Source: Fibrobacter succinogenes subsp. succinogenes S85
GTDB lineage: Bacteria > Fibrobacterota > Fibrobacteria > Fibrobacterales > Fibrobacteraceae
DNA: 32,000 nucleotides
NCBI RefSeq assembly: GCF_000146505.1
Contig: NC_017448.1
Location: 3,450,001 to 3,482,000 of the forward strand
Direction of reading: 5' to 3'
The notes under the pieces were generated by a model. The model made no database searches. It saw only the letters and a program-made list of their open reading frames with translations, and was not told the DNA's origin. The position numbers and the translations under genes are program-made. Shown here piece by piece: positions 12,216 through 27,957 of the stretch; within the stretch, counting starts at the first letter, position 1; the number at the start of each line of letters is the position of its first letter.

Positions 12216-12240
12216 AAATTTTTTTGCTAGGTTTGTGGTC

Positions 12241-13152
12241 ATGAAAGAATACGCTCCTGCAAAAATCAATTTGTTTTTAGATGTAATCCGCAAGCGTGAA
12301 GACGGTTATCACGATTTGGGAACGGTCTTCCAGACTATTGACGCTGGCGATACGGTCGAAGCGACACTTCGCGAAGATGGCGAACTCCACCTGACGTACA
12401 ACGAACCGCAGAACTATCCGCTGGAATCCGACCTCGTGTTCAAGGCTGCGAAAGCGCTCAAGGAATTTGCAAAGTGCAACCTTGGTGCGGACATCCACCT
12501 CACGAAGGTGATGCCGTTGGGGGCAGGACTTGGTGGTGGAAGTGCCGATGCCGCCGCGACGCTCCGTTTGCTCAATCGCTTGTGGAACTTGAACCTCCCG
12601 TTCGAAACTTTGGAATCCATCGGTGCCCGTCTTGGTGCTGATGTGCCGTTCCTCGTTCGAGGCGGAACCGCCTTTGCTGAAGGTATCGGTGAACGTTTGA
12701 CGTTTGTGGAACCGCTCGACCTCCCGGAAGGGGCTGCACTCCTCATTGCGACTCCGCTTGATTCTGTGCCGACGAAGGATGCCTATGCGGGGGTCCCGAA
12801 GTCTGGCCCAGACCGTTGGGAACAGTACAAGGCGGCGTGGAAATCTCAGGTGCGGGTCGCGTTGTGTGGTGAGCCTGTTGCAGAGCCTGTTTCTGCCAAC
12901 GACACGTTTGTGCTGTTGGTCAATCCGGATCTTTGCTTCAATGCGTTTGAAATCTCCGTGTTCCCGACGCACCCGCTTGTCGCCGAAATGAAGCAAAAGT
13001 TCATTGAACTGGGGGCTGATGTTGCTTTGATGTCGGGATCCGGGGCTTCCGTTTTCGGAATTTTCAAGACCAAGGAACTTGCAGAAAAGGCTGCCGCCGC
13101 TCTGAAGCCGATTTCCCGCTACCAGACCGTCACCAAATTCTGGCATAGGTAG
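12241..13152 (+). CDS. ispE: 4-diphosphocytidyl-2-C-methyl-D-erythritol kinase
   Basis: MKEYAPAKINLFLDV...; GHMP-kinase motif PLGAGLGGGSADAAATL. The track start GTG 12235 is 2 codons upstream of the ATG. Confidence 0.93.
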   Translation: MKEYAPAKINLFLDVIRKREDGYHDLGTVFQTIDAGDTVEATLREDGELHLTYNEPQNYPLESDLVFKAAKALKEFAKCNLGADIHLTKVMPLGAGLGGGSADAAATLRLLNRLWNLNLPFETLESIGARLGADVPFLVRGGTAFAEGIGERLTFVEPLDLPEGAALLIATPLDSVPTKDAYAGVPKSGPDRWEQYKAAWKSQVRVALCGEPVAEPVSANDTFVLLVNPDLCFNAFEISVFPTHPLVAEMKQKFIELGADVALMSGSGASVFGIFKTKELAEKAAAALKPISRYQTVTKFWHR

Positions 13153-13217
13153 TGCCGCTTTTTTGTCAAAATGTGCGAAAAATGACTTTTTTCAGCTCTT
13201 TTTTTGCACGTTTGTCT

Positions 13218-13245
13218 TTGACAAAAGGGACTTTTTTACTATCTT
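13218..13245 (+). promoter_or_regulatory. Candidate sigma70-type promoter of tRNA-Gln
   Basis: TTGACA (13218-13223), 16-nt spacer, TATCTT (13240-13245), about 11 nt before the tRNA 5' end. Confidence 0.45.
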
Positions 13246-13256
13246 TGTCGCACCAT

Positions 13257-13328
13257 TGGGGTATCGTCAAGTGGTAAGACAACGGATTTTGATTCCGTTA
13301 TTCGTAGGTTCGAATCCTGCTACCCCAA
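13257..13328 (+). tRNA. tRNA-Gln (anticodon UUG)
   Basis: Hand-folded cloverleaf. Acceptor TGGGGTA/TACCCCA, anticodon stem ACGGA/TCCGT with loop TTTTGAT (anticodon TTG), T-arm GTAGG-TTCGAAT-CCTGC. 72 nt, no encoded CCA. Confidence 0.92.
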
Positions 13329-13358
13329 TGAATTTTTTTATCTAATGGAGATAACACA

Positions 13359-13982
13359 ATGGAACTCACAACGCTCAAAGCTGCCTCGAGAGTGCTAGGT
13401 GCAAACCGCGACAACGCCCGTTTGCGTAAGGCTGGTCAGATTCCGGCCGTCTATTATGGTAAGGGTATCGAAGCTAAGAACATCAGCGTCAGCGAAATCG
13501 ACTTGCGCAAGGTTCTTGCTCCGGGCAAGCGTTACACGCTTCTTGACCTCGAAATCGATGGCAAGGCTGGCAATCCGGCTCTCGTCTACAGTGTCCAGAA
13601 GGACGCTCTCACCCAGAAGATCACGCACGTTGACTTCATCAAGATCGCTGATGACGAATTCGTTAAGGTTCGCATCCCGGTCAAGCTTTCCGGTCTCCCG
13701 GTTGGCGTGAAGACTCAGGGCGGTCTCTTCTCTCAGGAAGCTCGTTATCTCATGCTCGCTGCTAAGCCGGCAAGCATCCCGTCTGTTCTCGAATTGGATA
13801 TCTCCAACTTCGAAACGAACGTGACCTTCTACGCTAAGGATTTCAAGCTCCCGGAAAACGTTACGCTCGCTTCTGGCCCGCGCACCGTTATCTTCACGAT
13901 TTCTTCTAAGTCCAAGAAGAAGGACGCTGCTGCTGCTCCGGCTGCTGACGCCGCTGCCGCTGCTGCTCCGGCTGCCAACTAA
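13359..13982 (+). CDS. rplY: 50S ribosomal protein L25 / general stress protein Ctc form
   Basis: N-terminus RDNARLRKAGQIPAVYYGKG with a two-domain Ctc-length body and an Ala-rich tail. The conserved rplY-pth neighbourhood is present. Confidence 0.9.
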   Translation: MELTTLKAASRVLGANRDNARLRKAGQIPAVYYGKGIEAKNISVSEIDLRKVLAPGKRYTLLDLEIDGKAGNPALVYSVQKDALTQKITHVDFIKIADDEFVKVRIPVKLSGLPVGVKTQGGLFSQEARYLMLAAKPASIPSVLELDISNFETNVTFYAKDFKLPENVTLASGPRTVIFTISSKSKKKDAAAAPAADAAAAAAPAAN

Positions 13983-14902: not shown

Positions 14903-16006
14903 ATGGTGAATAAAATTATTATTGCCTTGAGTATGGGACTCACGGCGGGGGTCTTGGCACAGGATTTTTGCAATGCAGCTAAACATACAGGTGCAAGCAA
15001 AAAAGTGAATGGAAACGAAGTGAGCTCGTTCAACGGTGTCGGTTACGAGCTTTGGTACGATAGGGCTACTTCGGGTTCGCTTACAATTTATGAAGACGGA
15101 TCCATGGCATGTTCTTTCCAGAATGCTGGAGACTACCTTTGCCGTGCGGGGCTTTCGTTCGATAGCGACAAGAAGTATAACGAACTTGGCGGCGATATGC
15201 TTGCGGAATTCAAGCTCGTGAAACAGAATATCAATGGTGCCGATTACTCCTATGTCGGCGTCTATGGTTGGATGGAAGAAGTCTCGAAATCCCCGAGCAA
15301 ACTGGTCGAATATTATGTTGTCGATAACTGGCTGACGGGGTGGAGGCCTGGCGATTGGGTCGCTAGCCATAAGATGGGCGATTACACAATCGATGGTGCC
15401 AAATACTCCGTTTATTGGGGTGAACATACGGGGCCGGCCATCAAGACACAGGGCAATACGACTTTTTTGCAGTATTTCAGCATTCGTGAAAATGCCCGTG
15501 ATTGCGGAGTCATCAATATTAGCGCTCACATGAGACAGTGGGAAAAGCTGGGCATGGAAATGGGTAAGCTCTACGAAGCCAAGGTGCTTGGCGAAGCGGG
15601 GAGCATGAGTAACGGCGTTTCCGGTACGGCCGATTTTCCGCATATAAAGGTTTATGTCAAAGGCGACGAAGTTCCGTCGTCCAGTTCCGTTGCTTTAAGT
15701 TCAAGTTCTGTGGTGTCGAGTTCCTCTGAAACTGTGCCGAGTTCGTCATCGGAGAAGGTCGCGGAATCTTCGAGTAGCGTTGACGGTTCTTCGAGTTCGG
15801 GGACCGATGCGATTCCGTTTATGGCTCAGCTCTTTGACAAGGCGGGTGTTTATCAGGTGTTCGATATGCAAGGGAATTTCCTCGGCAAGGTTGAGCTGAA
15901 GAATGGCTTGTCGCTTAAGCAGGCTGTGGCAAGCAAGTTTGCCCGCTCGTCCGTTTATCTGGTCAAGCGTGGGGCCTTTGCCAAGACGATTGCTGTCGAG
16001 CGATAA
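14903..16006 (+). CDS. Secreted GH11 endo-1,4-beta-xylanase with Ser-rich linker and C-terminal sorting-type domain
   Basis: ATG 14903 lies 5 nt after GGAGG; the track start is TTG 14888. Signal peptide is MVNKIIIALSMGLTAGVLAQ. GH11 hallmarks are YELW, YGW...LVEYYVVDNW, TFLQYFSIR and YEAKVLGEAG (the two catalytic Glu contexts). The tail ...YQVFDMQGNFLGKVEL...VYLVKRG resembles FCB-group C-terminal secretion domains. Confidence 0.88.
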   Translation: MVNKIIIALSMGLTAGVLAQDFCNAAKHTGASKKVNGNEVSSFNGVGYELWYDRATSGSLTIYEDGSMACSFQNAGDYLCRAGLSFDSDKKYNELGGDMLAEFKLVKQNINGADYSYVGVYGWMEEVSKSPSKLVEYYVVDNWLTGWRPGDWVASHKMGDYTIDGAKYSVYWGEHTGPAIKTQGNTTFLQYFSIRENARDCGVINISAHMRQWEKLGMEMGKLYEAKVLGEAGSMSNGVSGTADFPHIKVYVKGDEVPSSSSVALSSSSVVSSSSETVPSSSSEKVAESSSSVDGSSSSGTDAIPFMAQLFDKAGVYQVFDMQGNFLGKVELKNGLSLKQAVASKFARSSVYLVKRGAFAKTIAVER

Positions 16007-16668
16007 TGCGTTTGTTCCCTCATTTTTTTCTTTTCGTTCCAAAGTTGTCCATAACTAGGAATTTTTATCATTTGAATATCTGGATATTTGTCTTCCATCC
16101 AAGGAAAAAAGTGACCACACACAACGAGGGCGATGGGATTTTGTCTTTGAATCATTTCATCCAAACCAAGAATGAAATGACGAAGTCCCTCCTTGTCTGT
16201 TGAAATGCCGTTGGTGGTAATCGCAAGTACTGAATTTTGAGGCAACCCCTCCCAACACCATTCAAAACTGTCTTGAGTACTCCAACTAGCAGTAGGTATC
16301 ACGTTTATTCCTTTTTGTTGCCAGAAATAAGCTATTATACGATTACGATAACAGTTCCATTTCTGTCTGTTAGTTGAATAGTCTCTATAAAGGCTGTAAT
16401 CGGTACTAATCATTCCTTCAAGCTTTTGCAAGGGAGCGACATTTGCTAAGGGATCGTTCCAAAATTTATTTTGGTGAACGTCTTTGACAAAGCAATGGCC
16501 CCAAAGTTTTAATCCGTCTTTTGGGTCAATGATGTTAATGGGTAAGCATTTTTTGATATTTGGAATTGTTTGTGTGGGAGATAATTGGGGAACATGTAGT
16601 GACCCGACAAGAGGGGCTCCCTGTTGTATGAGCAAATGATCTAGAGTTATTTGGTCTTCTTTTTTCAT
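15955..16668 (-). CDS. DUF4417-family protein
   Basis: ISTDYSLYRDYSTNRQKWNCYRNRIIAYFWQQKGINVIPTASWSTQDSFEWCWEGLPQNSVLAITTNG matches my memory of the DUF4417 core (PDFS.Y.D.P...QIWN.YRNR...W...G..VIP...W). The last 52 nt overlap the 3' end of the convergent xylanase gene. Confidence 0.65.
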   Translation of the reverse strand: MKKEDQITLDHLLIQQGAPLVGSLHVPQLSPTQTIPNIKKCLPINIIDPKDGLKLWGHCFVKDVHQNKFWNDPLANVAPLQKLEGMISTDYSLYRDYSTNRQKWNCYRNRIIAYFWQQKGINVIPTASWSTQDSFEWCWEGLPQNSVLAITTNGISTDKEGLRHFILGLDEMIQRQNPIALVVCGHFFPWMEDKYPDIQMIKIPSYGQLWNEKKKMREQTHYRSTAIVLAKAPRLTR

Positions 16669-16686
16669 AGTTTATTTTGTGTGAGA

Positions 16687-17178
16687 TTATGCGTAAGTAT
16701 GCAATTCTAGTATTCGTCGCCGGTTCCCGTTTTTATACCAATATTCAACCTTGTCGCTCGGTTTTAAAATTCCTTTGCGGAGAGCTTCTTTGTATCCTTC
16801 AATAACCGATTCGACAGCCTTTTTCCCTTCAGCAATTGATTTGTGCTTGGAAAGCAGTATTATTTTGCTGTTTTCCTTGTGCTCGTAAAATTTAGACTCT
16901 GCAATTGTCGCTTTCATTTGTTTCGCTGCTTTTGCGAGGCTGCTGTTGCAAATTGTGTTGGCATTGTCTCCTTCAACACCTTTAACTTCTACTGGAGCAC
17001 CTTCAACCATCAGATCAGCTCTTTTATGATCGTTCGGCGTTTCTTTTAAAAAGGCGACATACTTGCCCTTATCAAGATAGTATTCAGCCACCTCAATTGC
17101 GTTTTTGTCCTGACGGGGGTTCCTGCTGTATTGAGGAAGCCTTTCCTTTTGTACGGCCTGATTGACCACCATATCCAC
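16687..17178 (-). CDS. PD-(D/E)xK-fold, toxin-like small nuclease (resembles CdiA-CT / Tox-REase tRNase-type domains)
   Basis: Motif RADLMVEGAPVEVKG gives D55-x8-E64-V-K66 (16981-17016). It is preceded by NAIEVAEYYLDKGKYVAF. GTG start at 17178, with an alternative ATG at 17172. Confidence 0.55.
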   Translation of the reverse strand: MDMVVNQAVQKERLPQYSRNPRQDKNAIEVAEYYLDKGKYVAFLKETPNDHKRADLMVEGAPVEVKGVEGDNANTICNSSLAKAAKQMKATIAESKFYEHKENSKIILLSKHKSIAEGKKAVESVIEGYKEALRKGILKPSDKVEYWYKNGNRRRILELHTYA

Positions 17179-17194
17179 CCATGTTTTACTCCTT

Positions 17195-17217
17195 TGTTCG
17201 CCTTATGGCGAACATTA
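17195..17217. promoter_or_regulatory. Palindrome TGTTCGCC-TTAT-GGCGAACA plus shared 11-mer GGCGAACATTA (operator or RNA hairpin)
   Basis: Perfect 8-bp inverted repeat at 17195-17214, in the 52-nt gap upstream of the PD-(D/E)xK gene. The 11-mer at 17207-17217 recurs at 18801-18811. Confidence 0.5.
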
Positions 17218-17230
17218 CGGTTAAAAAATT

Positions 17231-17698
17231 TTATTTTTCTTGTTTGTATATTTTTACGGGATTCTGCATTTCTGAATTTCTATAAAGTAACATTCGTGCG
17301 GAATTTACCCTTAGATAACGAATTTGTACCTTATCCTCATTCAATTTGAGAAAATCAGAAACAGTTATGTTTCCAGATATAGTATAGGCATTGTCTGCTG
17401 AACGGCTGTCAAATTCAATAAAGGTGATGTCATCATTGCTTGGTTCGCAAGAAAAAGATTCTTCAGGTTTTACAGGAACCATTCTATAATTGTACTTTGC
17501 AGAGATGAAATCCCATCTTCCGCAAACAGGGCAGCGCCAGACTTCCACTTCTTCGAAACGGAGAGGGAGGTCTTTTAGCATTACGTTTTCTGTTATGGCT
17601 TTTTTTATATCATCCATTCTAAATAAAGAAAGTTCTATTTGATTGATGCTGTCGGAATTCCGCATTCCGTACCCACAAAAACATCTCATGGATCCCAT
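17231..17698 (-). CDS. Hypothetical protein with split Zn-ribbon-like Cys pairs
   Basis: CFCGYG near the N-terminus and WRCPVCGRW at about residue 55. The ATG is 1 nt after the ImmA stop, so it belongs to the same operon. No family recognised. Confidence 0.55.
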   Translation of the reverse strand: MGSMRCFCGYGMRNSDSINQIELSLFRMDDIKKAITENVMLKDLPLRFEEVEVWRCPVCGRWDFISAKYNYRMVPVKPEESFSCEPSNDDITFIEFDSRSADNAYTISGNITVSDFLKLNEDKVQIRYLRVNSARMLLYRNSEMQNPVKIYKQEK

Positions 17699-17699
17699 A

Positions 17700-18389
17700 T
17701 TATTCCTCCAGCAGATTTAATTGAACGAGTCTAATGCGGGCTGCACTCACGCTCACTTCATATATTTGACAAATTGTATTGATAAAAGCAATTGATATTT
17801 TGTCGTTTTTTGACAACTTAAAGACAGTTGCTGTTTGAAAGAATTTCTTGAAAAGCAAGAACAGAGTTATCCTTGGCATTAGTAGTGCTCCAGCACCATA
17901 GTTGGCTTGGCGTTCCAACCACCAAATTGGTTTATGCAAATAAGAACTAATACTGACGATGTTGGAACTTGCGGCAATAGCGTTAGAATGATGCATAAAA
18001 TAATACGGATGCATTTTGATGTGGATGACTTCGTGTGCTGCCGTAAATCTGATTTCTACAGGAGACCGCGATTCGTCAACGACAATTGTTGAATTCTCGA
18101 TAGGAATGGGCTGCACTTTCTTTGTTTCACTATCAATAGACCAAATGACCATTTTTGAAAATGCGGTTATCCCTTTAGCTTGAGGATAGGCGATATCTCG
18201 CATTTCTAACTTGAAGCCGAATTCATTAGATTCAATCCATTCTTCAATAGGGACGCATTGTGGGTAAAGCAATATCTCTGGATGACACTCCCTCAAGTAG
18301 TTTTCCACAGCATCTTCAATTTGGGCGTAACTGACACGGTAAACGCCCCTTTCGTCCATGGAAATATGAGAGTAGTCAATAAAGTCCAT
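17700..18389 (-). CDS. ImmA/IrrE-family (M78, COG2856) zinc metallopeptidase
   Basis: HEVIH (18021-18035, minus strand) followed by ERQANYGAGALLMP, the family signature. The start overlaps the XRE stop by 1 nt. Confidence 0.85.
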   Translation of the reverse strand: MDFIDYSHISMDERGVYRVSYAQIEDAVENYLRECHPEILLYPQCVPIEEWIESNEFGFKLEMRDIAYPQAKGITAFSKMVIWSIDSETKKVQPIPIENSTIVVDESRSPVEIRFTAAHEVIHIKMHPYYFMHHSNAIAASSNIVSISSYLHKPIWWLERQANYGAGALLMPRITLFLLFKKFFQTATVFKLSKNDKISIAFINTICQIYEVSVSAARIRLVQLNLLEE

Positions 18390-18766
18390 TATTTGCCTTT
18401 TTGAATAATGTTAATGATATTTCGCCATTGATCGTCTGTAATCTTAGAATTTTTAGCAGAACGTAACGCGATGGCTGCAAGAGGGGTGGCCTTGATGTAT
18501 TCGGTCAGGTCTGTTGGGGCTACATCGCGCCTTGCTGTAGCGGACAAATCAAAAAGTTGATTCCTGTCATTTTCAGAAAGATTTAGAATGGATGCTATTT
18601 TTTCGAGAAATTCCTTTTCGATGGGATTTTTCTTTCCTTTTTCAATATCACAAACATAAGATGGAGCCTTTCCTAGCATATCTGCAAATTTTCGTAACGA
18701 GATGCCTAACTCTCGACGTTTTTCAGAAATAAAAAATCCAAATGAATCTAATGCTTTTGCAGTCAT
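18389..18766 (-). CDS. XRE-family helix-turn-helix transcriptional regulator
   Basis: RRELGISLRKFADMLGKAPSYVCDIEKGKKNP is a classic Cro/C1 HTH. ATG 18766 lies 5 nt after AGGAG; the track start is TTG 18781. Confidence 0.88.
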   Translation of the reverse strand: MTAKALDSFGFFISEKRRELGISLRKFADMLGKAPSYVCDIEKGKKNPIEKEFLEKIASILNLSENDRNQLFDLSATARRDVAPTDLTEYIKATPLAAIALRSAKNSKITDDQWRNIINIIQKGK

Positions 18767-18786
18767 GATTGCTCCTATCAAAAAAA

Positions 18787-18843: not shown

Positions 18844-18973
18844 TAGGATAAACGCATTTTTTTTGAAAAAAATCGATTTTTTGCCAAAATAGTCATTTTT
18901 CACCCTGGACTCAGTTTCGAGGTGCCGAAATCGTAACTTTCCTTTTAATATCGGGTACTTTGGTTTTTCCTCA

Positions 18974-18986
18974 TTTTTTTTTTTTT
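18974..18986. repeat. Homopolymeric T13 tract flanked by CCTCA / TGAGG
   Basis: Counted directly: 13 consecutive T in the divergent intergenic region. Confidence 0.9.
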
Positions 18987-19038
18987 GAGGCTCGGTTTTG
19001 TGTTTTTCCTGAACTAAAATGCCGATTTTATATTATTT

Positions 19039-19066
19039 TTGCCAATGACATAGAAAAGAGTAATTT
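19039..19066 (+). promoter_or_regulatory. Candidate promoter for the leader and methyltransferase operon
   Basis: TTGCCA (19039-19044), 16-nt spacer, TAATTT (19061-19066). The predicted start falls at the first leader hairpin. Confidence 0.3.
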
Positions 19067-19070
19067 GTCT

Positions 19071-19300
19071 CTTGTTCTCAACCTGAAATCGCCAAATTTC
19101 AACAACCCGAGAACAAGGCGAACGCTCACGCATGGATAGTCCGTATAGGGCTATTCATCGCATTGCTGTATCCGAGGCATAAGTCCCGGTTATTTGGCTA
19201 TGTGCCCATTTCGGGGCGTGGGTCGTGCGTTTATCGGGTTTAGGCTTTGGCGAGCCTCAGGTTGGTAAGCGTTACGACTCACGCCTTTCTTGTTGCTTGC
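19071..19300 (+). promoter_or_regulatory. GC-rich structured 5' leader / candidate cis-regulatory or small RNA upstream of the methyltransferase operon
   Basis: Hand-folded stems: 19071-19079/19109-19117; 19134-19142/19148-19156; and an 18-bp stem 19215-19232/19267-19285 with three G-U pairs, capped by AGGCT/AGCCT (19242-19257) and followed by TTTCTTGTT. No ORF of 60 aa or more in this stretch. Confidence 0.4.
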
Positions 19301-19381
19301 GATTGATTTTTTCGGCAACATTTTTAAGGTTTGAAATTTCGCTGACTTGCGAGGGCTAGAGGCATAAACAAGGAGTTGCTT

Positions 19382-22030
19382 ATGCCAAGCATTGCTGAAA
19401 TCGAAAATAAGATTGAAGATATTGTAGCCAAGTATCGTGAAACTGGAGCTACAGGTGATTTTATTTATGACTTTATCTTGGCTTATGACTTACCTAAGGC
19501 TTCGGTTAAACGTTTGCAAAACGGCTCGCTGAATTTATCTAAAAATCAAGGCGAAATCTGCTGGAAGGGCAAACTCCTTTACAAGGAATTGTTCAAAGAC
19601 GAATTAAATGTAAGCTTGGCTTTAGAAACTGCAAAATCTATTAAACATAATGAACGATTTGTAGTTCTTTCTGATGGTAAAAAACTGCTTTGTGTTGATA
19701 CAAAGACCAAAGACACCTTAGAGACTGAATTTAAGGATTTGCCGAAACATTCGTCATTCTTTTTGCCGTGGGCGGGGATTGAAAAAACGGAGTTTATCGA
19801 TGAAAATCCGGCTGATGTTCGTGCAGCTCGCAAAATGGCGAAGCTTTTTGACGAAATCAAAAAAGACAATGCTAAAAAACTGATTTCGCAACATGATTTT
19901 AATGTGTTCCTTTCTCGGCTTCTTTTTTGCTTTTTTGCTGAAGATACGGGAATTTTTACAGACAACTTATTTACAAATACTATTGCAGCGACAACAAAAG
20001 CCGATGGAAGTGACTTGAATGAATTTTTAGAACGGTTGTTTACCGTTCTTGATACAGCCCCCAAAGAACGTAAAAAGTTACCTGATTATCTTGAAAAATT
20101 TCCGTATGTAAACGGAGGACTTTTCCGTAATAAAATCGAGATTCCTCGTTTTTCAGCTCATAGTCGTAATAAGATAATTGAATGTGGTGAATTGAATTGG
20201 AAGGATATCAATCCCGATATTTTTGGTTCCATGTTCCAAACGGTTATTGACGAGGAACAACGCGGTGATTTAGGGCAACATTACACTAGCGTTCCAAATA
20301 TTATGAAGGTAATAGAACCTCTTTTCTTGAATGACCTTCGCAAAGAATTTGACGCTGCTGGAAAGAGTGTAACCAAATTAAAAAATCTGCTGTTGCGTAT
20401 TCGCAATATTCAAATTTTTGACCCCGCTTGCGGTTCTGGCAATTTCTTGATTATTGCCTATAAGGAACTCCGTAAATTGGAAATGGATATTTTGCTCAAA
20501 ATGCAGGAATTTGGGCTTACGGGGATTCATTTGAATCATTTTTACGGAATTGAAATTGATGACTTTGCGTGCGAAACAGCGAAGCTTTCACTGTGGCTTG
20601 CCGAGCATCAAATGAATGTAGAGTTTTTTAGCAAAACAGGAACAATATGCCCAACGCTTCCGTTGAAAGAGGCAGGCCACATAGTTTGCGATAACGCCTG
20701 CAATATTGATTGGAACAATGTTTGCCCAAATAATGGAAACGATGAAATTTATGTACTTGGAAATCCTCCATATTTAGGGGCACGATTGCAAAAAGAAAAC
20801 CATAAAAAAGATGTTGAGGCGGTTTTTGAAAATGTTAAAGGAGCAAAGAATTTAGACTACATTGCCTGTTGGTTCTATAAAGGTTCTGATTATATAGCAA
20901 ACTCCAATGCTACCTTAGCGTTTGTAAGTACCAATTCTATTTGCCAAGGCGAACAAGTCGCAATACTTTGGCCGCAGATATTCAACAAAGGAATTGAAAT
21001 TCAATTTGGTTATTCGTCTTTCAAATGGACTAACAATGCTCAATATAATGCTGGTGTAATTGTTACAATAATAGGGCTTAGTGACGAAAAATTAAGAAAA
21101 GAACATTTTTTATTTAATGGATTAAGAAAAAATAAGGCCTCTAAAATTAATGCATATTTGTCTTCGGGATCAGATGTAATTGTTGAAGAAAAGAAAGACT
21201 CTTTAAGTGATTTCCCTCCTATGAATTTTGGGAGTATGCCCAATGATGGTCAATATCTTCTTTTTGAAAAAAAAGAGCACGATGATGCAGTAAAGAAATG
21301 TCCAGAAATAAAAAAGTTTATGAAGCTTTTTCTTGGGGCTGATGAATTTATAAATGGAGAGAAAAGATATTGTTTGTGGATTACAGATAATAGCAAAAAA
21401 GAAGCTATGTCTATTCCAATTATTGCTGAACGAGTAAAAAAATGTAAGGAGCTACGTGTGAAAAGTAAAAGAGCAGCAACAAATAAATTAGCACTTGTTC
21501 CTTATAAATTTGGAGAAATTCGATATAAGGAAACCTCTTCAATCATTGTTCCGGGAGCTTCTTCAGAACGTCGTACTTATATCCCCATGGATTTTCTTTC
21601 TAAGGATACTGTTGTTTCGAATGCAGCGTTTGCAGTATATGATGCAGAACCTTGGCTTTTCAGCATCCTGAATTCAAAAATGCATATGGCGTGGGTGCGA
21701 ACCGTTGGCGGAAAACTCAAAAATGATTATCGCTATTCAGCCAAGCTTGTTTACAACACCTTCCCGTTCCCGCATATCAATGATGAACAAAAGAACATGC
21801 TTAAGGACTACGCTTTTGGCATCATTGCTGCAAGAGAAAATCATCCGGGAAAAACGTTGGCTGAGCTCTACAATCCAGAATCCATGCCCAATGACCTCAA
21901 AAAAGCACACGAAGAAAACGACTTTGCAATTGAAAAAATTTACAGAGCAAGGCCATTTGCTAACGATGAAGAACGCCTTGAGTTTCTCTTTAGGCTTTAT
22001 GAACAGATGATTCGCGAAGAACAGGAGTAA
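19382..22030 (+). CDS. MmeI-family N6-adenine DNA methyltransferase / target-recognition fusion; N-terminal nuclease motif apparently degenerate
   Basis: ATG 19382 lies 6 nt after AAGGAG; the track start is TTG 19376. Family-wide blocks are LLFCFFAEDTGIF, FPYVNGGLF, FDPACGSGNFL (SAM), GNPPYLG (NPPY at 20762-20773), STNSICQGEQV, YRYSAKLVYNTFPFP and ERLEFLFRLYEQM. Confidence 0.88.
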   Translation: MPSIAEIENKIEDIVAKYRETGATGDFIYDFILAYDLPKASVKRLQNGSLNLSKNQGEICWKGKLLYKELFKDELNVSLALETAKSIKHNERFVVLSDGKKLLCVDTKTKDTLETEFKDLPKHSSFFLPWAGIEKTEFIDENPADVRAARKMAKLFDEIKKDNAKKLISQHDFNVFLSRLLFCFFAEDTGIFTDNLFTNTIAATTKADGSDLNEFLERLFTVLDTAPKERKKLPDYLEKFPYVNGGLFRNKIEIPRFSAHSRNKIIECGELNWKDINPDIFGSMFQTVIDEEQRGDLGQHYTSVPNIMKVIEPLFLNDLRKEFDAAGKSVTKLKNLLLRIRNIQIFDPACGSGNFLIIAYKELRKLEMDILLKMQEFGLTGIHLNHFYGIEIDDFACETAKLSLWLAEHQMNVEFFSKTGTICPTLPLKEAGHIVCDNACNIDWNNVCPNNGNDEIYVLGNPPYLGARLQKENHKKDVEAVFENVKGAKNLDYIACWFYKGSDYIANSNATLAFVSTNSICQGEQVAILWPQIFNKGIEIQFGYSSFKWTNNAQYNAGVIVTIIGLSDEKLRKEHFLFNGLRKNKASKINAYLSSGSDVIVEEKKDSLSDFPPMNFGSMPNDGQYLLFEKKEHDDAVKKCPEIKKFMKLFLGADEFINGEKRYCLWITDNSKKEAMSIPIIAERVKKCKELRVKSKRAATNKLALVPYKFGEIRYKETSSIIVPGASSERRTYIPMDFLSKDTVVSNAAFAVYDAEPWLFSILNSKMHMAWVRTVGGKLKNDYRYSAKLVYNTFPFPHINDEQKNMLKDYAFGIIAARENHPGKTLAELYNPESMPNDLKKAHEENDFAIEKIYRARPFANDEERLEFLFRLYEQMIREEQE

Positions 22031-22035
22031 TCAAC

Positions 22036-23973
22036 ATGCCTGATATTGTTCATTTCGAATACGCCCAAACGGGTAATTCTTCCAAAACGGATTCTCTTGG
22101 AATGCGAGAAATGCAGGCTCGTGCCTATGCAGCCCGTGCATCTCAATATTTGTTGATTAAGTCACCTCCGGCATCTGGCAAATCCCGAGCACTTATGTTT
22201 ATCGCTCTTGATAAACTTTATCATCAGGGGCTAAAAAAAGTAATTGTCGCCGTTCCTGAACGATCTATTGGAGCATCCTTTGCAAAAACTCAACTGCGCA
22301 AATATGGATTCTTTGCTGATTGGAATCCTGTGGATGAGTATAACTTGTGCTTTGCGGGGAGTGATTCCAGCAAAGGCAAGGTAAAAAAATTCCATGAATT
22401 TATGGAAAGCAAAAATGACAACATCTTAATATGTACTCACGCTACCTTACGTTTTGCAGCCGAAGGATTGGACGAAAAAGCTTTTGATGATTGTCTCGTC
22501 GCTATAGATGAATTTCATCATGTTTCCGCAGATGATTCGAGTTGTTTGGGTGAAATGTTGCGTGGACTGATTTCAAAGTCTTCGGCACACATAGTCGCTA
22601 TGACCGGTTCATATTTCCGTGGAGATTCTGTCCCAGTGCTCTCGCCAGAAGACGAAGCGTTATTTACCAAGATTACTTACAATTATTACGAACAGCTTAA
22701 TGGTTACAAGTATTTAAAATCGCTTGGAATCGGCTATCATTTTTATCAAGGGAAATACACATCGGCAATCGGAGAAATTCTTGATACCGACAAAAAGACG
22801 ATTCTTCATATTCCAAATGTGAATTCCGGGGAATCCACAAAAGATAAACATTCTGAAGTCGACTTTATTTTAGATTCAATTGGTGAAGTTGAAAAGCAAG
22901 ATTTGGAAACAGGCGTGATAACGGTTCGTCGTAAAGACGGAAAATTGTTGAAAGTCGCAGACCTTGTAGATGATGAACCGGCAAACCGTACAAGAATTGT
23001 CGAATATCTTCGTAAAATTGCAAAACCCGAAGACATGGATTTAATTATCGCATTGGGAATGGCAAAAGAAGGTTTCGACTGGCCGTTCTGTGAACACGCT
23101 CTTACGGTCGGATATCGTGGCTCGTTAACTGAAATCATCCAAATTATTGGGCGATGCACACGAGATAGTAAAAATAAGACTCATGCACAGTTTACAAATT
23201 TGATTGCTCAGCCCGAAGCTAAGGATGATGATGTTGTTGTCGCCGTAAACAATATGCTTAAAGCAATTACCGCATCACTCCTCATGGAACAAGTGCTTGC
23301 TCCTGAATGGAATTTCAAAACTCGCGAAGATGGAGATGATTCTGAAGAACCGGGAACAATCAAAATCCGTGGATTTAAAACACCGTCGTCTAAACGAGTT
23401 AAGGATATTATTGAAACTGATATAAACGATTTGAAGGCTTCCATTTTGCAAGATAAAACCATGCAAAGTGCAATGCCGGGCGGTGTAGAACCCGAAGTTA
23501 TCAACAAGGTGTTGATTCCAAAAATTATCCGCACGAAATATCCAGATTTAACCGATGAAGAGGTTGAAGAAATTCGTGAACATGTTGTTGCTGATACCGC
23601 TATTCGAACTGCAAAAATTGAAAAGCATGGTGACAAACGATTTATTCGTATGGCAAATAAGTTTGTCAATATTGACGATTTGCATATTGACCTGATTGAT
23701 TCCATCAATCCGTTCCAAGCGGCTTTTGAAGTACTTTCAAAATCTGTTACTCCGAGCGTTTTGAAGATGATTCACAATGTCATCGAAGAAACCCGTATCG
23801 AGATGACCGATGAAGAAGCCATGCTTCTTTGGCCTAAAATTAAAGCTTTCAGAGAAACAAATGGACGTGAGCCAAATATATCTTCTGTCAATCCACAAGA
23901 AAAGCGATTTGCAGAATGTATTGTATATCTGAGAAAACGTAAGAGGGAACGCGATGCCCAAAACGCTAGATGA
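22036..23973 (+). CDS. SF2 DEAD/DEAH-box helicase/translocase (type III Res-like core, no recognisable nuclease domain)
   Basis: Motif I SPPASGKSR, motif II AIDEFHH, motif III MTGS, motif VI QIIGRCTRD. Starts 5 nt after the methyltransferase stop, with AGGAG in the upstream gene end. Confidence 0.88.
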   Translation: MPDIVHFEYAQTGNSSKTDSLGMREMQARAYAARASQYLLIKSPPASGKSRALMFIALDKLYHQGLKKVIVAVPERSIGASFAKTQLRKYGFFADWNPVDEYNLCFAGSDSSKGKVKKFHEFMESKNDNILICTHATLRFAAEGLDEKAFDDCLVAIDEFHHVSADDSSCLGEMLRGLISKSSAHIVAMTGSYFRGDSVPVLSPEDEALFTKITYNYYEQLNGYKYLKSLGIGYHFYQGKYTSAIGEILDTDKKTILHIPNVNSGESTKDKHSEVDFILDSIGEVEKQDLETGVITVRRKDGKLLKVADLVDDEPANRTRIVEYLRKIAKPEDMDLIIALGMAKEGFDWPFCEHALTVGYRGSLTEIIQIIGRCTRDSKNKTHAQFTNLIAQPEAKDDDVVVAVNNMLKAITASLLMEQVLAPEWNFKTREDGDDSEEPGTIKIRGFKTPSSKRVKDIIETDINDLKASILQDKTMQSAMPGGVEPEVINKVLIPKIIRTKYPDLTDEEVEEIREHVVADTAIRTAKIEKHGDKRFIRMANKFVNIDDLHIDLIDSINPFQAAFEVLSKSVTPSVLKMIHNVIEETRIEMTDEEAMLLWPKIKAFRETNGREPNISSVNPQEKRFAECIVYLRKRKRERDAQNAR

Positions 23974-25150
23974 TATTTTCGCTGATGATTCCTATGGCTT
24001 GCTAAATGAAAAGTCCAAGGCGAATCCAATTACAGACCAAGATCGCATGGTTCAAGAATTTGAGGAACTTTCACGTTTCGTAAGCGAAAATGGCAGGGAA
24101 CCTTCTGAAAATAGCAATGATCCATCTGAATATCGCTTAGCCAAAAGGCTCGCGAAATATCGTAGTGATAGCAAGTTGATTGAAAATCAAGCGATATACA
24201 ACGCCGATGTTCACGGATTACTTCATTCTACAGGAAAAAGCAATCAAAGCAAGGAAATGAGTTTTGATGAAATCCTTGATTCTTTTAATTTGAACGAAGA
24301 AGAAAAATCCATATTCGATTTACATCCGTCGGTAAAAAAAGCTATCGATCGCGATGAAGCAGATTTTATTGCAAAACGCAAACCATGCAAAGATTTCTCC
24401 AAATACGAATCAAAGTTTAAAAAAGTTCAAAACGATATCCGTAGTGGCAAGCGAAAACTCCTCGATGCAAAAATATCTCACCTTAAAGAGGGTGGATTCT
24501 ATTTTTACAATGGAGTGCTTTTCTTTGTAGAATCAATTGAGATTTCTCAAAAAAATGCAGTTACCCCCGAAGGCAAGCATATTTATGAAAACGGTCGAAC
24601 TCGCTGCATTTTTGAAAACGGAACAGAAGCAGCTTTACTTAAACGTTCTGTAGAAAAGTTATTGTATCTGAATGGAAAAACTGTTACTGAAAATAGCGAA
24701 GAAACAGCCGCGAAAGCAGAAAAGGAATTGGGCATCAACGAAAAAGATAAGGCTTGTGGCTTTATTTATGTTTGCTCTTCGTTAAGCAAAGAACCGTCCA
24801 TTGCAGAAATTAAAAACCTGTATAAAATAGGCTTTTGCACTACATCAGTTGAAGAACGTTTAAAAAATGCTGAAAAAGAACCTACATATTTGATGGCTCC
24901 AGTTCGCCATATTGCAAGCTGGCAATGTTTCAATATGAATCCGCAAAAATTTGAACAGTTGATTCATAATTTCTTTGGTCGTGTATGTCTAAATGTGGAT
25001 GTCTTTGATGAAAAGGGTGAGAGACATATTCCAAAAGAATGGTTTGTAGTTCCGTTACCTGTAATAAAACAAGTAATTGAAATGATAATCACTGGTGAAA
25101 TTATCAAATATCGCTACGATGAAAAAAAACAGGTTCTAGTGAAACGATAG
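23954..25150 (+). CDS. T5orf172 / GIY-YIG-superfamily domain protein (putative nuclease)
   Basis: The C-terminal domain reads GFIYVCSS...LYKIGFCTTSVEERLKN...PKEWFVVP (GIY / YIG / Arg / Glu layout of T5orf172-MUG113 domains). It overlaps the helicase gene by 20 nt. Confidence 0.8.
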   Translation: MPKTLDDIFADDSYGLLNEKSKANPITDQDRMVQEFEELSRFVSENGREPSENSNDPSEYRLAKRLAKYRSDSKLIENQAIYNADVHGLLHSTGKSNQSKEMSFDEILDSFNLNEEEKSIFDLHPSVKKAIDRDEADFIAKRKPCKDFSKYESKFKKVQNDIRSGKRKLLDAKISHLKEGGFYFYNGVLFFVESIEISQKNAVTPEGKHIYENGRTRCIFENGTEAALLKRSVEKLLYLNGKTVTENSEETAAKAEKELGINEKDKACGFIYVCSSLSKEPSIAEIKNLYKIGFCTTSVEERLKNAEKEPTYLMAPVRHIASWQCFNMNPQKFEQLIHNFFGRVCLNVDVFDEKGERHIPKEWFVVPLPVIKQVIEMIITGEIIKYRYDEKKQVLVKR

Positions 25151-25236
25151 ATTTTGTTTCAATAGCGGCTTTAGATGAAGCAATTCGAAAGAATGTCAGC
25201 CCGGCTGACGATATGAAATGAAAAATCAAACTATAG

Positions 25237-25260
25237 GCCTCTCAAATCTTGAGAGGCTTT
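25237..25260 (+). terminator. Terminator-like hairpin after the three-gene operon
   Basis: GCCTCTCAA - ATC - TTGAGAGGC (perfect 9 bp) followed by TTT. Confidence 0.6.
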
Positions 25261-25296
25261 AATGTTGCCTAAATTGCGGAAAAAGATTTAGACCTC

Positions 25297-25345
25297 TTGA
25301 CAATCGTGATTTTCTGATTTATATTGTATAGTGAACAAATGTTCA
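25297..25345 (+). promoter_or_regulatory. Near-consensus promoter plus palindromic operator-like site upstream of the Rpn-family gene
   Basis: TTGACA (25297-25302), 17-nt spacer, TATATT (25320-25325). TGAACA-AA-TGTTCA (25332-25345) follows at about +1. Confidence 0.55.
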
Positions 25346-25409
25346 AAGCAAACGAAATGTAATCTAAAGCCACGCCTTTTTTAGCTTGTAGGCGGGAGAG
25401 GAGTGAAAG

Positions 25410-26354
25410 ATGAAAGAACGTAAGTCCCTCAAGGACTGTATCGTGAAACCGGGCGAGAAGAGTCCCTTCGCAAATCTTCTTATTGATTTGGCGTTCAAGA
25501 AAGCATTCGATCCGGACAAGCCCACTAGCCGCAACAATCTCATCAACCTGCTGAACGACCTGCTTGAACCGCAGCTTAAGCGGCCAATCAAAAACGTGTG
25601 GACTCGCAATGTCGCAAAGAATCTGAGTGGTAGCAAAGAATCTCGCACGGCAATTTTCGATTTGCACTGTAAAGACGATATGGGCAATTTGATTGAGATT
25701 GAGGTGCAAATTCGCGAGATGGATAATTTTATGAAGCGTCTGGCTTTCTATGCGAGTGAACTGGTGGCCAATCAGGCCGAACCTGGTGAAGAGTGGAATT
25801 ACGATGTTCAGCCGACATACGTAATCGCGTTGACTCGTATTCATGTTTTTGATGACGAAAATGCTGTTCACCGTGCCGCCGTGACAGATTTGGAAACAGG
25901 CAAACAAGTTATGGATACATACAACTATGCTGTAATTGAGCTTTCTAAGGTTCCGTTTTTCATTGAGAAAACATCCAGTGATTTAAGCAAATGGCTGTTC
26001 TTCTTCCGTTACTTGAACCGCCTCAAGGAACTCCCCGAAGAGTTGAACGAGTCCAAGTTTCAACAGTTGACGGAAAGCTCGAAAGTGTCTAACTTTTCAA
26101 AAAAGGAATTTGAGGCTTATCAGCGTATGCATCACGAAAAATGGGATCACAATGTCATGGTGCCGGGCATTTTCAAGGAATTCGCGACGGAAATCAACGC
26201 AAAGATTGAAGAACGTATTTCCGATCGAAATCATGAAATAGCCAAGAAAATGGTTGCCGCAGGCAAGTTGTCTGATACAGAAATTGCAGACTATTCTGGT
26301 CTATCCGTAGAAGATGTTGTCGTTTTGCGGAGTCAAATGTGCGAGTCGGATTAA
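25410..26354 (+). CDS. Rpn-family recombination-promoting nuclease / PD-(D/E)xK_2 putative transposase
   Basis: FKKAFDPDKPTSRNNLINLLNDLL...AIFDLHCKDDMGNLIEIEVQI...FMKRLAFYASELV, the typical PDDEXK_2/YhgA-like N-terminal nuclease core. Confidence 0.78.
   Translation: MKERKSLKDCIVKPGEKSPFANLLIDLAFKKAFDPDKPTSRNNLINLLNDLLEPQLKRPIKNVWTRNVAKNLSGSKESRTAIFDLHCKDDMGNLIEIEVQIREMDNFMKRLAFYASELVANQAEPGEEWNYDVQPTYVIALTRIHVFDDENAVHRAAVTDLETGKQVMDTYNYAVIELSKVPFFIEKTSSDLSKWLFFFRYLNRLKELPEELNESKFQQLTESSKVSNFSKKEFEAYQRMHHEKWDHNVMVPGIFKEFATEINAKIEERISDRNHEIAKKMVAAGKLSDTEIADYSGLSVEDVVVLRSQMCESD

Positions 26355-26451: not shown

Positions 26452-27957
<1,506 letters not shown>

Follow-up and report, generated by a model that had tools for sequence, protein, structure and literature searches.

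The chromosome of Fibrobacter succinogenes subsp. succinogenes S85 carries an AT-rich cluster of three genes for an MmeI-family methyltransferase, a superfamily 2 (SF2) helicase and a T5orf172/GIY-YIG protein, which raises the question of whether the three proteins act together in defence and, if so, as what kind of system. The cluster (hereafter the trio) lies in a stretch of 32,000 nucleotides (nt; NC_017448.1, positions 3,450,001 to 3,482,000) that we call the window and whose numbering is used throughout. An initial annotation of the window had proposed that recognition/methylation, motor and cleavage are divided among the three proteins of a restriction-modification (R-M)-like system, and had found no named R-M type or defence system to which this combination corresponds. 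The functional reading stands, but the claim of novelty fails, because the locus is assigned to the already described YeeA-YeeB-YeeC (PMC2731913). By homology and gene order it is a new intact member of the known DnmA(YeeA)-YeeB-YeeC family. The division of labour over three proteins is the best-supported reading and agrees with the literature, where Morgan 2009 had already proposed the same (PMC2731913). The three genes are as follows:

19382..22030, + strand: gene 1, 882 amino acids (aa), ACX76034.1/WP_014547063.1, a YeeA/DnmA-type MmeI-family protein (Pfam, alignment to 5HR4)
22036..23973, + strand: gene 2, 645 aa, ACX76035.1, a YeeB-type SF2 ATPase/helicase (Pfam DEAD/ResIII/Helicase_C)
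23954..25150, + strand: gene 3, 398 aa, ACX76036.1, a YeeC-type protein (Pfam T5orf172/MUG113)

The list of open reading frames (ORFs) gives the trio as 19376-22030, 22036-23973 and 23954-25150, all on the + strand, and translation of gene 1 most likely begins with the ATG at 19382, 3' of AAGGAG. Genes 1 and 2 are separated by 5 nt (22031-22035) and genes 2 and 3 share 20 nt (23954-23973), in line with the arrangement first described. The start of gene 2 at 22036 has its own ribosome-binding site, AGGAG, within the 3' end of gene 1, and the start of gene 3 at 23954 has AAGAGGGA within gene 2. Because of the short gap, the overlap and these internal ribosome-binding sites, the three tightly coupled genes are one translationally coupled operon.

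Gene 1 contains all five MmeI Pfam domains (MmeI_N, hel, Mtase, TRD and C; E = 3.7e-106 for MmeI_Mtase and 1.3e-81 for MmeI_TRD), and a phmmer alignment with MmeI (Protein Data Bank (PDB) entry 5HR4) covers residues 44-876 at E = 2e-190, which bears out the likeness to MmeI along its whole length that had been noted at the outset. The methyltransferase motifs FDPACGSGNF (346-355) and NPPY (461-464) are those of a gamma-class N6-adenine methyltransferase, an FxGxG-type motif is present as well, and the MmeI-type recognition domain has the published recognition positions. Gene 1 is predicted to encode an N6-adenine methyltransferase with a target-recognition domain. The observation that decides its role, and the key supporting fact absent from the initial annotation, concerns the following domain:

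19382..19876, + strand: N-terminal domain of gene 1, a homologue of the MmeI nuclease domain without the PD-ExK triad (MAFFT and phmmer)

As determined by a MAFFT alignment of MmeI with ten YeeA-type proteins, the catalytic residues D70-X9-E80-X-K82 of MmeI are gone in gene 1, where E80 is replaced by Lys, K82 by Leu, and D70 falls in a gap. In gene 1 and its nine relatives, the latter from six other lineages, position 80 is an invariant Lys, position 82 is Leu, Val, Ser or Phe, and D70 is in the gap throughout. Judged by these replacements, gene 1 is nuclease-dead and needs two partner proteins, a separate nuclease being required because D70, E80 and K82 have been lost. The N-terminal domain presumably serves instead for docking to or communication with helicase and nuclease subunits, after Morgan 2009. 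A D-x8-D-T-K string (RFVVLSDGKKLLCVDTKT, 19673-19708, aa ~98-109 of gene 1) is conserved across YeeA-type N-terminal domains and superficially resembles PD-(D/E)xK; as a candidate for a relocated motif it was set aside, because it aligns to non-catalytic MmeI strands and its first Asp is Asn in one relative. Over its full extent gene 1 fits the PADLOC model REase_MTase_IIG (1049 bits), so automatic tools would likely mislabel it as a Type IIG restriction enzyme. In NCBIfam, none of the three proteins scored above a family cut-off.

Gene 2 is 65% identical to Bacillus subtilis YeeB over 609 residues (BLASTP; the B. subtilis YeeB and YeeC sequences were taken from Fig. S5 of PMC9973331). The SF2 motifs that had been recognized in it, I (PPASGKS, 44-50), II (DEFH, 158-161), III (TGS, 190-192) and VI (QIIGRCTRD, 369-377), are all present and are invariant across 32 homologues. 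Its ResIII match is to the generic SF2 N-lobe only (E = 2.5e-6), and no nuclease domain is found. The gene product is presumed to be a DNA translocase. A relationship to Dnd/Pbe systems was considered for gene 2 and rejected, the PADLOC matches covering the RecA2 lobe only.

Gene 3 shares 41% identity with B. subtilis YeeC (E = 3e-70). From the N-terminus onwards it has a helical motif (aa ~38-73), a linker that varies, a beta-rich central domain that is conserved (aa ~140-260) and, at the C-terminus, a nuclease-type domain, the T5orf172/GIY-YIG-type end that the initial annotation had reported. This T5orf172/MUG113 domain spans aa 269-378 (nt 24758-25087; Pfam T5orf172 E = 1.7e-11) and displays the GIY-YIG elements GFIY (269-272), YKIG (290-293), R302 and E362. 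Across 34-37 homologues G269, I271, Y272, K291, G293, R302 and E362 are invariant, and I292 is nearly so. In the AlphaFold2 (AF2) model, whose mean predicted local distance difference test score (pLDDT) is 76.5, the C-terminal domain is confident. T5orf172 domains are members of the GIY-YIG endonuclease superfamily, and a protein with such a domain, ICP1 Gp88, has been described as an origin-directed nuclease (PMC8263062); T5orf172 is also listed among the R-M families of defence islands. Gene 3 is presumed on these grounds to encode the cleavage subunit.

A further feature links the second and third proteins:

23836..23943, + strand: C-terminal tail motif of gene 2, aa ~601-636, '...F..NGREP..S.NP.E.R.A...' (hhalign)

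This tail is homologous to the N-terminus of gene 3 (aa ~38-73; 24065-24172), the two sharing a motif of ~36 residues centred on NGREP (hhalign probability 93.6%, E = 2e-7). B. subtilis YeeB stops just before the tail (the BLASTP alignment ends at residue 602) and the Vibrio crassostreae protein has it. The missing tail offers a concrete, testable hypothesis for why the B. subtilis system is inactive, and its presence suggests that the window copy is the complete form of the system. Pfam gave no match for either the NGREP motif or the central domain of gene 3, and a resemblance to the helicase-associated (HA) domain is not supported.

These properties place the locus. The assignment to YeeA-YeeB-YeeC follows from the YeeB and YeeC identities of 65% and 41% together with an MmeI-family gene 1 without PD-ExK: a motif-less MmeI-family protein is followed directly by a YeeB-like helicase and then by a YeeC-like T5orf172 gene. 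That gene 1 is orthologous to DnmA we infer from synteny, from its place in the MmeI family and from the loss of the motif. Morgan 2009 had distinguished a 'second set' of MmeI homologues without PD-ExK that are 'invariably' found beside DEAD helicase and GIY-YIG genes, only the motif-less homologues being flanked in this manner (PMC2731913). When YeeA and a Moraxella homologue (MslORFHP) were expressed, no endonuclease activity was found, and the MmeI-like subunit was proposed to provide specificity and single-strand protective methylation, with its altered N-terminal domain engaging the helicase and endonuclease subunits (PMC2731913). YeeA was later named DnmA and the cluster was tested (PMC7261158, PMC9973331, bioRxiv 10.1101/2021.05.05.442762). 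DnmA is necessary and sufficient for N6-methyladenine (m6A) at GACGAG in B. subtilis (PMC7261158), and its cluster is conserved beside DnmA homologues in many species (PMC9973331). In V. crassostreae 7F1_18, 'only yeeAB mediated resistance' to one phage subclade (bioRxiv 10.1101/2021.05.05.442762). Our literature search returned no later paper naming a YeeA-YeeB-YeeC system or solving its mechanism. The trio shares with B. subtilis YeeA-YeeB-YeeC and with V. crassostreae yeeA/yeeB the same families in the same order and an AT-rich, horizontally acquired context. The C-termini of genes 2 and 3 are full length, like those of the active Vibrio proteins and in contrast to B. subtilis YeeB, which lacks the NGREP tail.

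Conservation of the trio as a neighbourhood, on which the initial annotation had staked its proposal, is borne out: the same three genes occur in the same order in every related locus long enough to show them, and tblastn confirmed all three wherever the contig was long enough. Their association is therefore no accident. Such loci come from a Treponema-labelled rumen metagenome-assembled genome (MAG; L001), a Cyclobacteriaceae MAG (L002), Flavobacterium (L006), Methanosarcina mazei (L009), the loci L008 and L011, the Fibrobacter-type contigs L012 and L013, and several rumen metagenome contigs. In PLSDB, 232 plasmids carry the helicase, of which 118 are conjugative, and the YeeC-type family comprises 368 clusters (50% identity) at E <= 1e-30; a scan of the genome collection with gene 3 as a single protein returned 2 loci, a query form that an alignment would outreach. 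Gene 2 is 71-73% identical to archaeal homologues, its partners being far less conserved (about 52% and about 45-50%). This level of helicase identity extends across Fibrobacter, Bacteroidota and methanogens (L009, Methanosarcina mazei; P0190, Methanolobus), which implies strong constraint together with wide horizontal transfer.

A 6.15-kb cassette consisting of 19021-19381 and the trio (19021-25172) is 95% identical in DNA to the locus L003 and travels as a unit between genomic contexts. Between these two copies the ratio of nonsynonymous to synonymous divergence (dN/dS) is 0.03 for gene 2 and 0.085 for gene 3, values that place the trio under strong purifying selection. The synonymous divergence (dS) is itself uneven, at 0.026 for the first 960 nt of gene 1, 0.336 for gene 2 and 0.074 for gene 3, and points to mosaic recombination within the operon. 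Two other loci differ in their make-up. In Flavobacterium sp. RSSB_23 (L006:3854-7948), genes for a KAP NTPase, an unassigned protein and an SLFN/AlbA_2-HATPase protein stand between methyltransferase and helicase, and SIR2+HerA and AAA_15+DUF4435 pairs lie just downstream, the whole being a dense defence island on a relaxase-carrying element. On the conjugative resistance plasmid pG32-177 of Proteus terrae (L043, NZ_CP053372.1) IS26 truncates the MmeI-like gene, and the annotation splits the YeeC-type gene into ORFs of 95 aa and 304 aa, so that this cluster is decaying.

Which DNA site the system would read can be approached through the published MmeI code and the corresponding part of gene 1:

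21167..21775, + strand: target-recognition domain of gene 1 (alignments; published MmeI code)

At the MmeI positions 751/773/774/806/808/810, gene 1 has G/N/A/K/D/R. In MmeI, K806 with D808 specifies G at site position 6 and R810 with A774 a purine at position 4, and the coupled pairs 751/773 and 806/808 were found by Morgan & Luyten to set site positions 3 and 6 (PMC2731914). With K806/D808 and R810/A774 present, the site of gene 1 is predicted to end in R-A(m6)-G, position 3 (G751/N773) lying outside the published rules. Compared with B. subtilis DnmA the recognition residues differ, and the predicted ...RAG site need not be GACGAG. Within gene 1, divergence is greatest in this recognition domain. 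In L017 (gene 1 at 10903-13548) the N-terminal and hel domains are 99-100% identical to those of the window and the recognition domain is 59% identical; the specificity residues change to R/D/S/K/D/R, and L026 has MmeI's own E/N/A/E/R/R. Across the relatives, positions 751/773 and 806/808 vary in the coupled pairs known from MmeI (E/N with R/D, E/R with K/D). This pattern indicates that recognition domains are swapped between near-identical systems.

We therefore favour, with moderate confidence, a Type I-like, three-subunit, ATP-dependent R-M-like defence system derived from an MmeI-type enzyme. Gene 1 would bind an asymmetric site of 6-7 bp and methylate one adenine on one strand as the host mark, an activity taken from that of DnmA at GACGAG. 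It should be unable to cut, its N-terminal domain having lost PD-ExK and YeeA having shown no cleavage in vitro. On an unmethylated site, the degenerate N-terminal domain would recruit or activate the YeeB-type ATPase and thereby start translocation, after which the YeeC-type T5orf172/GIY-YIG protein would cut the DNA. The helical NGREP motifs of the helicase tail and of the nuclease N-terminus may be assembly modules. Targeting for restriction probably depends on the methyltransferase subunit, much as it does in Type I systems, and this would explain why a dnmA deletion is viable in B. subtilis. Complex formation, translocation, cleavage by YeeC and this dependence of restriction on the methyltransferase are proposals, and methyltransferase activity and phage protection are expected from homologues. 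In this Fibrobacter lineage, transcription of the operon would first pass a structured leader with a terminator-like stem at its end (described below), which suggests attenuation-type control.

Comparison with established systems defines the proposal further. To MmeI and the Type IIL/IIG enzymes gene 1 is akin in its near full-length homology, its methyltransferase motifs and its recognition code at 751/773/774/806/808/810; single-strand m6A protection is probable for the trio too, and no second methyltransferase lies nearby. It differs in the absence of the PD-ExK residues that mark those enzymes (D70-X9-E80-X-K82), and in having two extra subunits and an ATPase, whereas MmeI itself needs no ATP. 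Both Morgan 2009 and Nye 2020 called the cluster 'Type I-like'. The proposed likeness to Type I R-M lies in restriction targeted by a methyltransferase-recognition complex, an SF2 motor and methyltransferase-dependent cleavage. Unlike Type I systems, the trio has no separate HsdS, distributes motor and nuclease over two proteins in place of one HsdR, would use a GIY-YIG/T5orf172 nuclease and not PD-(D/E)xK, and would recognize an asymmetric site methylated on one strand and not a bipartite one; Pfam found no Methylase_S or HsdR_N domain in the trio or its neighbours. Nor is it a Type III system, gene 1 being of the MmeI family and not a beta-class Mod, and gene 2 being without a PD-(D/E)xK nuclease. 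Type ISP enzymes (LlaGI, LlaBIII) combine nuclease, SF2 translocase, m6A methyltransferase and recognition domain, and act on an asymmetric site with single-strand methylation. They do so in one polypeptide with a PD-(D/E)xK nuclease, in contrast to the three proteins and the GIY-YIG-type domain of the trio. CglI relies on a conventional methyltransferase that is a protein of its own, and its nuclease has another fold. A precedent for nuclease and helicase-like ATPase on separate proteins is given by the CglI/NgoAVII type, in which a nuclease (R) and a DEAD-family ATPase (H) communicate along DNA by NTP hydrolysis (PMC5737866). The CglI R subunit itself recognizes the site, whereas recognition in the trio resides in the methyltransferase.

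Several observations weigh against the Type I-like system. In B. subtilis, dnmA can be deleted without a change in transformation efficiency (PMC7261158), so that no restriction of transformation is seen; deletion of yeeB or yeeC leaves the susceptibility to three Bacillus phages unchanged, and GACGAG is not avoided in phage genomes (PMC9973331). The protection in V. crassostreae was observed for yeeA/yeeB only, by inactivation through plasmid integration with possible polar effects (bioRxiv 10.1101/2021.05.05.442762). For no family member have translocation by YeeB, cutting by YeeC or a three-protein complex been demonstrated biochemically. A Foldseek search of the gene 3 model against the PDB gave no significant match and leaves the GIY-YIG fold unconfirmed; because no significant solved relative was found, the fold assignment rests on Pfam and the literature. 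The AF2 model of gene 2 is poor (pLDDT 59.5), because all aligned homologues were more than 70% identical, and a profile search against PDB sequences yielded marginal motif-VI matches (RIG-I/DHX58/XPB) and no close solved relative. PADLOC, a tool proposed at the outset for placing the trio, named only gene 1: version 2 has no dedicated model for gene 2, which gave weak partial matches to PbeA/Cas3 helicase lobes, and no model for gene 3, with zero matches. Finally, the site given for gene 1 and the part played by the leader are both inferred. On the other side stand the signs of an active system: low dN/dS, invariant catalytic motifs, recognition-domain swaps with MmeI-type covariation, and C-terminal modules that have been kept.

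An unlikely alternative is that the trio defends the cell without classical cleavage at or near unmethylated sites, the methyltransferase marking self as PglX does in BREX; helicase and T5orf172 protein might, for example, nick DNA, block replication, degrade from ends or kill the infected cell. BREX PglX and class 1 DISARM DrmMI are distant MmeI relatives that mark an asymmetric site on one strand, and the weak similarity of gene 1 to both methyltransferases speaks for such a mode of action, as do the central domain of gene 3, conserved but without an assigned function or a significant structural match, and the restriction of protection in V. crassostreae to one phage subclade. The similarity amounts to weak partial matches, with at most 42.8 bits for PglX models whose cut-offs lie at 400-900 (500 for BREX-1 PglX) and a DrmMI match confined to the recognition-domain region. 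The partner genes of BREX and DISARM are, moreover, missing from the window: no PglZ, BrxC or BrxL was found among the window ORFs scanned with Pfam, as the initial annotation had stated, the window scans found no DUF1998 (DrmB) or PLD (DrmC) gene, and gene 2 matches no DrmA or DrmD model. The invariance of the T5orf172 catalytic residues and the nuclease described in ICP1 Gp88 argue for cleavage, and swaps of the recognition domain that leave the MmeI code intact are expected if the site is a restriction target.

That the trio is a relic, as the authors of the B. subtilis work called their copy (PMC9973331), is less likely still. The methyltransferase would then be an orphan epigenetic regulator, and genes 2 and 3 would no longer restrict. 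The B. subtilis data fit this picture, with no protection, a viable dnmA deletion and an effect of m6A on promoter activity, and the Proteus plasmid cluster with its IS26-truncated methyltransferase and split YeeC shows such decay in progress. In the window all three ORFs are intact and, as judged by dN/dS values of 0.03-0.085, under strong purifying selection; the helicase keeps 71-73% identity across bacteria and archaea; the C-terminal modules that B. subtilis has lost are still in place; the cassette travels in one piece between genomic contexts at 95% DNA identity and exchanges its recognition domains; and the V. crassostreae homologues protect. That gene 1 is an autonomous Type IIG/IIL enzyme placed upstream of an unrelated helicase-nuclease defence pair, as its end-to-end PADLOC match, the RefSeq label 'type IIL restriction-modification enzyme MmeI' on a plasmid homologue and the three genes between methyltransferase and helicase in Flavobacterium L006 might suggest, is very improbable in view of the PD-ExK residues missing from it and from nine relatives, the lack of endonuclease activity in YeeA and the Moraxella homologue and the flanking of only motif-less homologues by helicase/GIY-YIG genes (PMC2731913), the translational coupling, and the co-occurrence of the trio in all examined loci of sufficient length.

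Upstream of the operon lies an element that is distinct from the trio. In DNA comparisons the conserved cassette begins ~360 nt upstream of gene 1 and includes a structured leader composed as follows:

19062..19305, + strand: leader element, ~240 nt (conserved upstream DNA, nhmmer, covariation)
19071-19079 with 19109-19117, + strand: 5' stem (structure)
19117-19131, + strand: invariant block GGCGAACGCTCACGC (conservation)
19132-19158, + strand: covarying hairpin (covariation)
19172-19189, + strand: second hairpin (structure)
19213-19296, + strand: long G/U-rich stem and U-run, intrinsic-terminator-like, ~85 nt before the ATG

In the terminator-like stem, the invariant G/U-rich 5' arm GGGGCGTGGGTCG pairs with ...CGACTCACGCC, and a U-run follows. 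A metagenome scan with a 21-nt invariant block found 29 loci; a nhmmer profile recovered the whole leader in 27 of them and its 5' half in 2, and other related loci bring the number to 35. Besides the window, the element occurs in L001, L003 and L012-L042. Among 29 distinct sequences, 97.8% of pair cells are standard, compared with 38-51% when the partners are slid by 1-3 columns, and the covariation score was reached by none of 500 shuffles. One hairpin shows changes on both sides in 8 of its 10 pairs, and the terminator stem varies solely by one-sided, wobble-compatible changes. Rfam 15 detected only a tRNA-Gln in the whole window at gathering score, with no match to the leader, and only a 12-bit snoRNA noise match in 18900-19450 at E <= 10; a search of viral contigs found no copy.

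The trio is present at only about one third of the leader loci, and within the YeeA-YeeB-YeeC family the leader is found only at Fibrobacter-type loci. Elsewhere the leader keeps the same orientation, the next ORF of >=80 codons beginning 3-94 nt past the profile match in most loci and 238-933 nt past it in four. Among the genes that follow it in Fibrobacter-type rumen contigs are unrelated R-M and defence genes (a Mod+Res pair of Type III-like kind, a Dcm methylase, a methylase together with a UvrD/PD-(D/E)xK protein, an ATPase-TOPRIM of the OLD family and a PDDEXK_4 protein), a radical-SAM enzyme and variable surface lipoproteins (Fib_succ_major), and some loci have the upstream flank and leader in common and different genes downstream. 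We take the element to be a portable 5' leader that heads accessory operons in Fibrobacter. Its invariant block could pair over 8 bp with the 5' arm of the terminator as an antiterminator, and the leader as a whole may be an attenuator, a target of processive antitermination, a small RNA or a recombination handle. An integron attC site, a bridge/omega RNA and a retron noncoding RNA were considered as well and do not fit the neighbouring genes. On a bolder reading, somewhat less likely than not, many horizontally acquired accessory genes, anti-phage systems among them, would be controlled by this previously undescribed leader, acting either as one RNA switch (by attenuation or processive antitermination) or as a common recombination handle through which cassettes are exchanged. 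The leader is the more novel item of the two and the one most worth following up.

The trio lies in AT-rich surroundings. The G+C counts of 17/60 on the line at 21121 and 34/60 on that at 27361, made by hand in the initial annotation, are exact; the trio has 37.8% G+C and guaB 55.3%, within an AT-rich island of ~16.0-26.4 kb bordered by pth/GH11 xylanase and guaB. The operon likely ends at the following hairpin, read from the sequence and a hairpin scan:

25237..25262, + strand: terminator candidate, GCCTCTCAA-ATC-TTGAGAGGC, then TTTAATG

When the ORFs of the window were scanned with Pfam, 18 gave matches and several others none. The matches besides the trio are FtsK, NRPS-like, MatE, SpoIIE, GHMP kinase, L25, Pth, GH11, DUF4417, M78, HTH, PDDEXK_2, IMPDH, DPBB-like and amidase. 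A search of the Escherichia coli genome with the 6.3-kb region gave no match.

On its upstream side the trio adjoins a five-gene cassette of the form HTH-M78-x-x-DUF4417 (15955-18781, - strand). The HTH protein matches PADLOC capH (1e-4), the M78 peptidase capP (4.9e-12) and the DUF4417 protein a PHROG 'nuclease' (8e-42), the other two genes encoding small proteins without an assigned family. The cassette occurs in three orientations relative to the trio (window, L003/L034 and L012) and trio-free in L047 and L044. In our view it is a module of its own, a candidate for defence or addiction under a CapH/CapP-like regulator; PADLOC v2 has no system model for it. That its HTH and M78 genes regulate the trio was rejected as the principal interpretation in view of these trio-free copies and the three orientations. 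At the right edge of the island lies a PD-(D/E)XK_2 (Rpn/transposase-like) gene (25297-26354, + strand), with the best sigma-70-like promoter match of the region, TTGACA-17-TATATT, at 25297-25325, 5' of this gene. A stretch of 165 nt (25250-25414) is 71% identical to L003:9654-9815, which lies past the HTH-M78-DUF4417 cassette of that locus.

For the family, the trio corrects annotation more than it adds a discovery, since a gene likely to be labelled 'Type IIG' is by its motifs nuclease-dead. YeeA-YeeB-YeeC is widespread, in bacteria, in archaea and on 232 plasmids, many of them conjugative and in clinical genera, and PADLOC v2 has no model for the system. The F. succinogenes S85 type strain is hard to manipulate genetically. 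Its intact, full-length copy is useful both as a candidate transformation barrier and as material for biochemistry. With the MmeI recognition code kept, target sites should be predictable and engineerable; together with the recognition-domain swaps and the NGREP motif missing from the inactive B. subtilis version, this gives the family three gains in tractability. The leader, if regulatory, would be a rare case of shared RNA-level control over many different defence systems.

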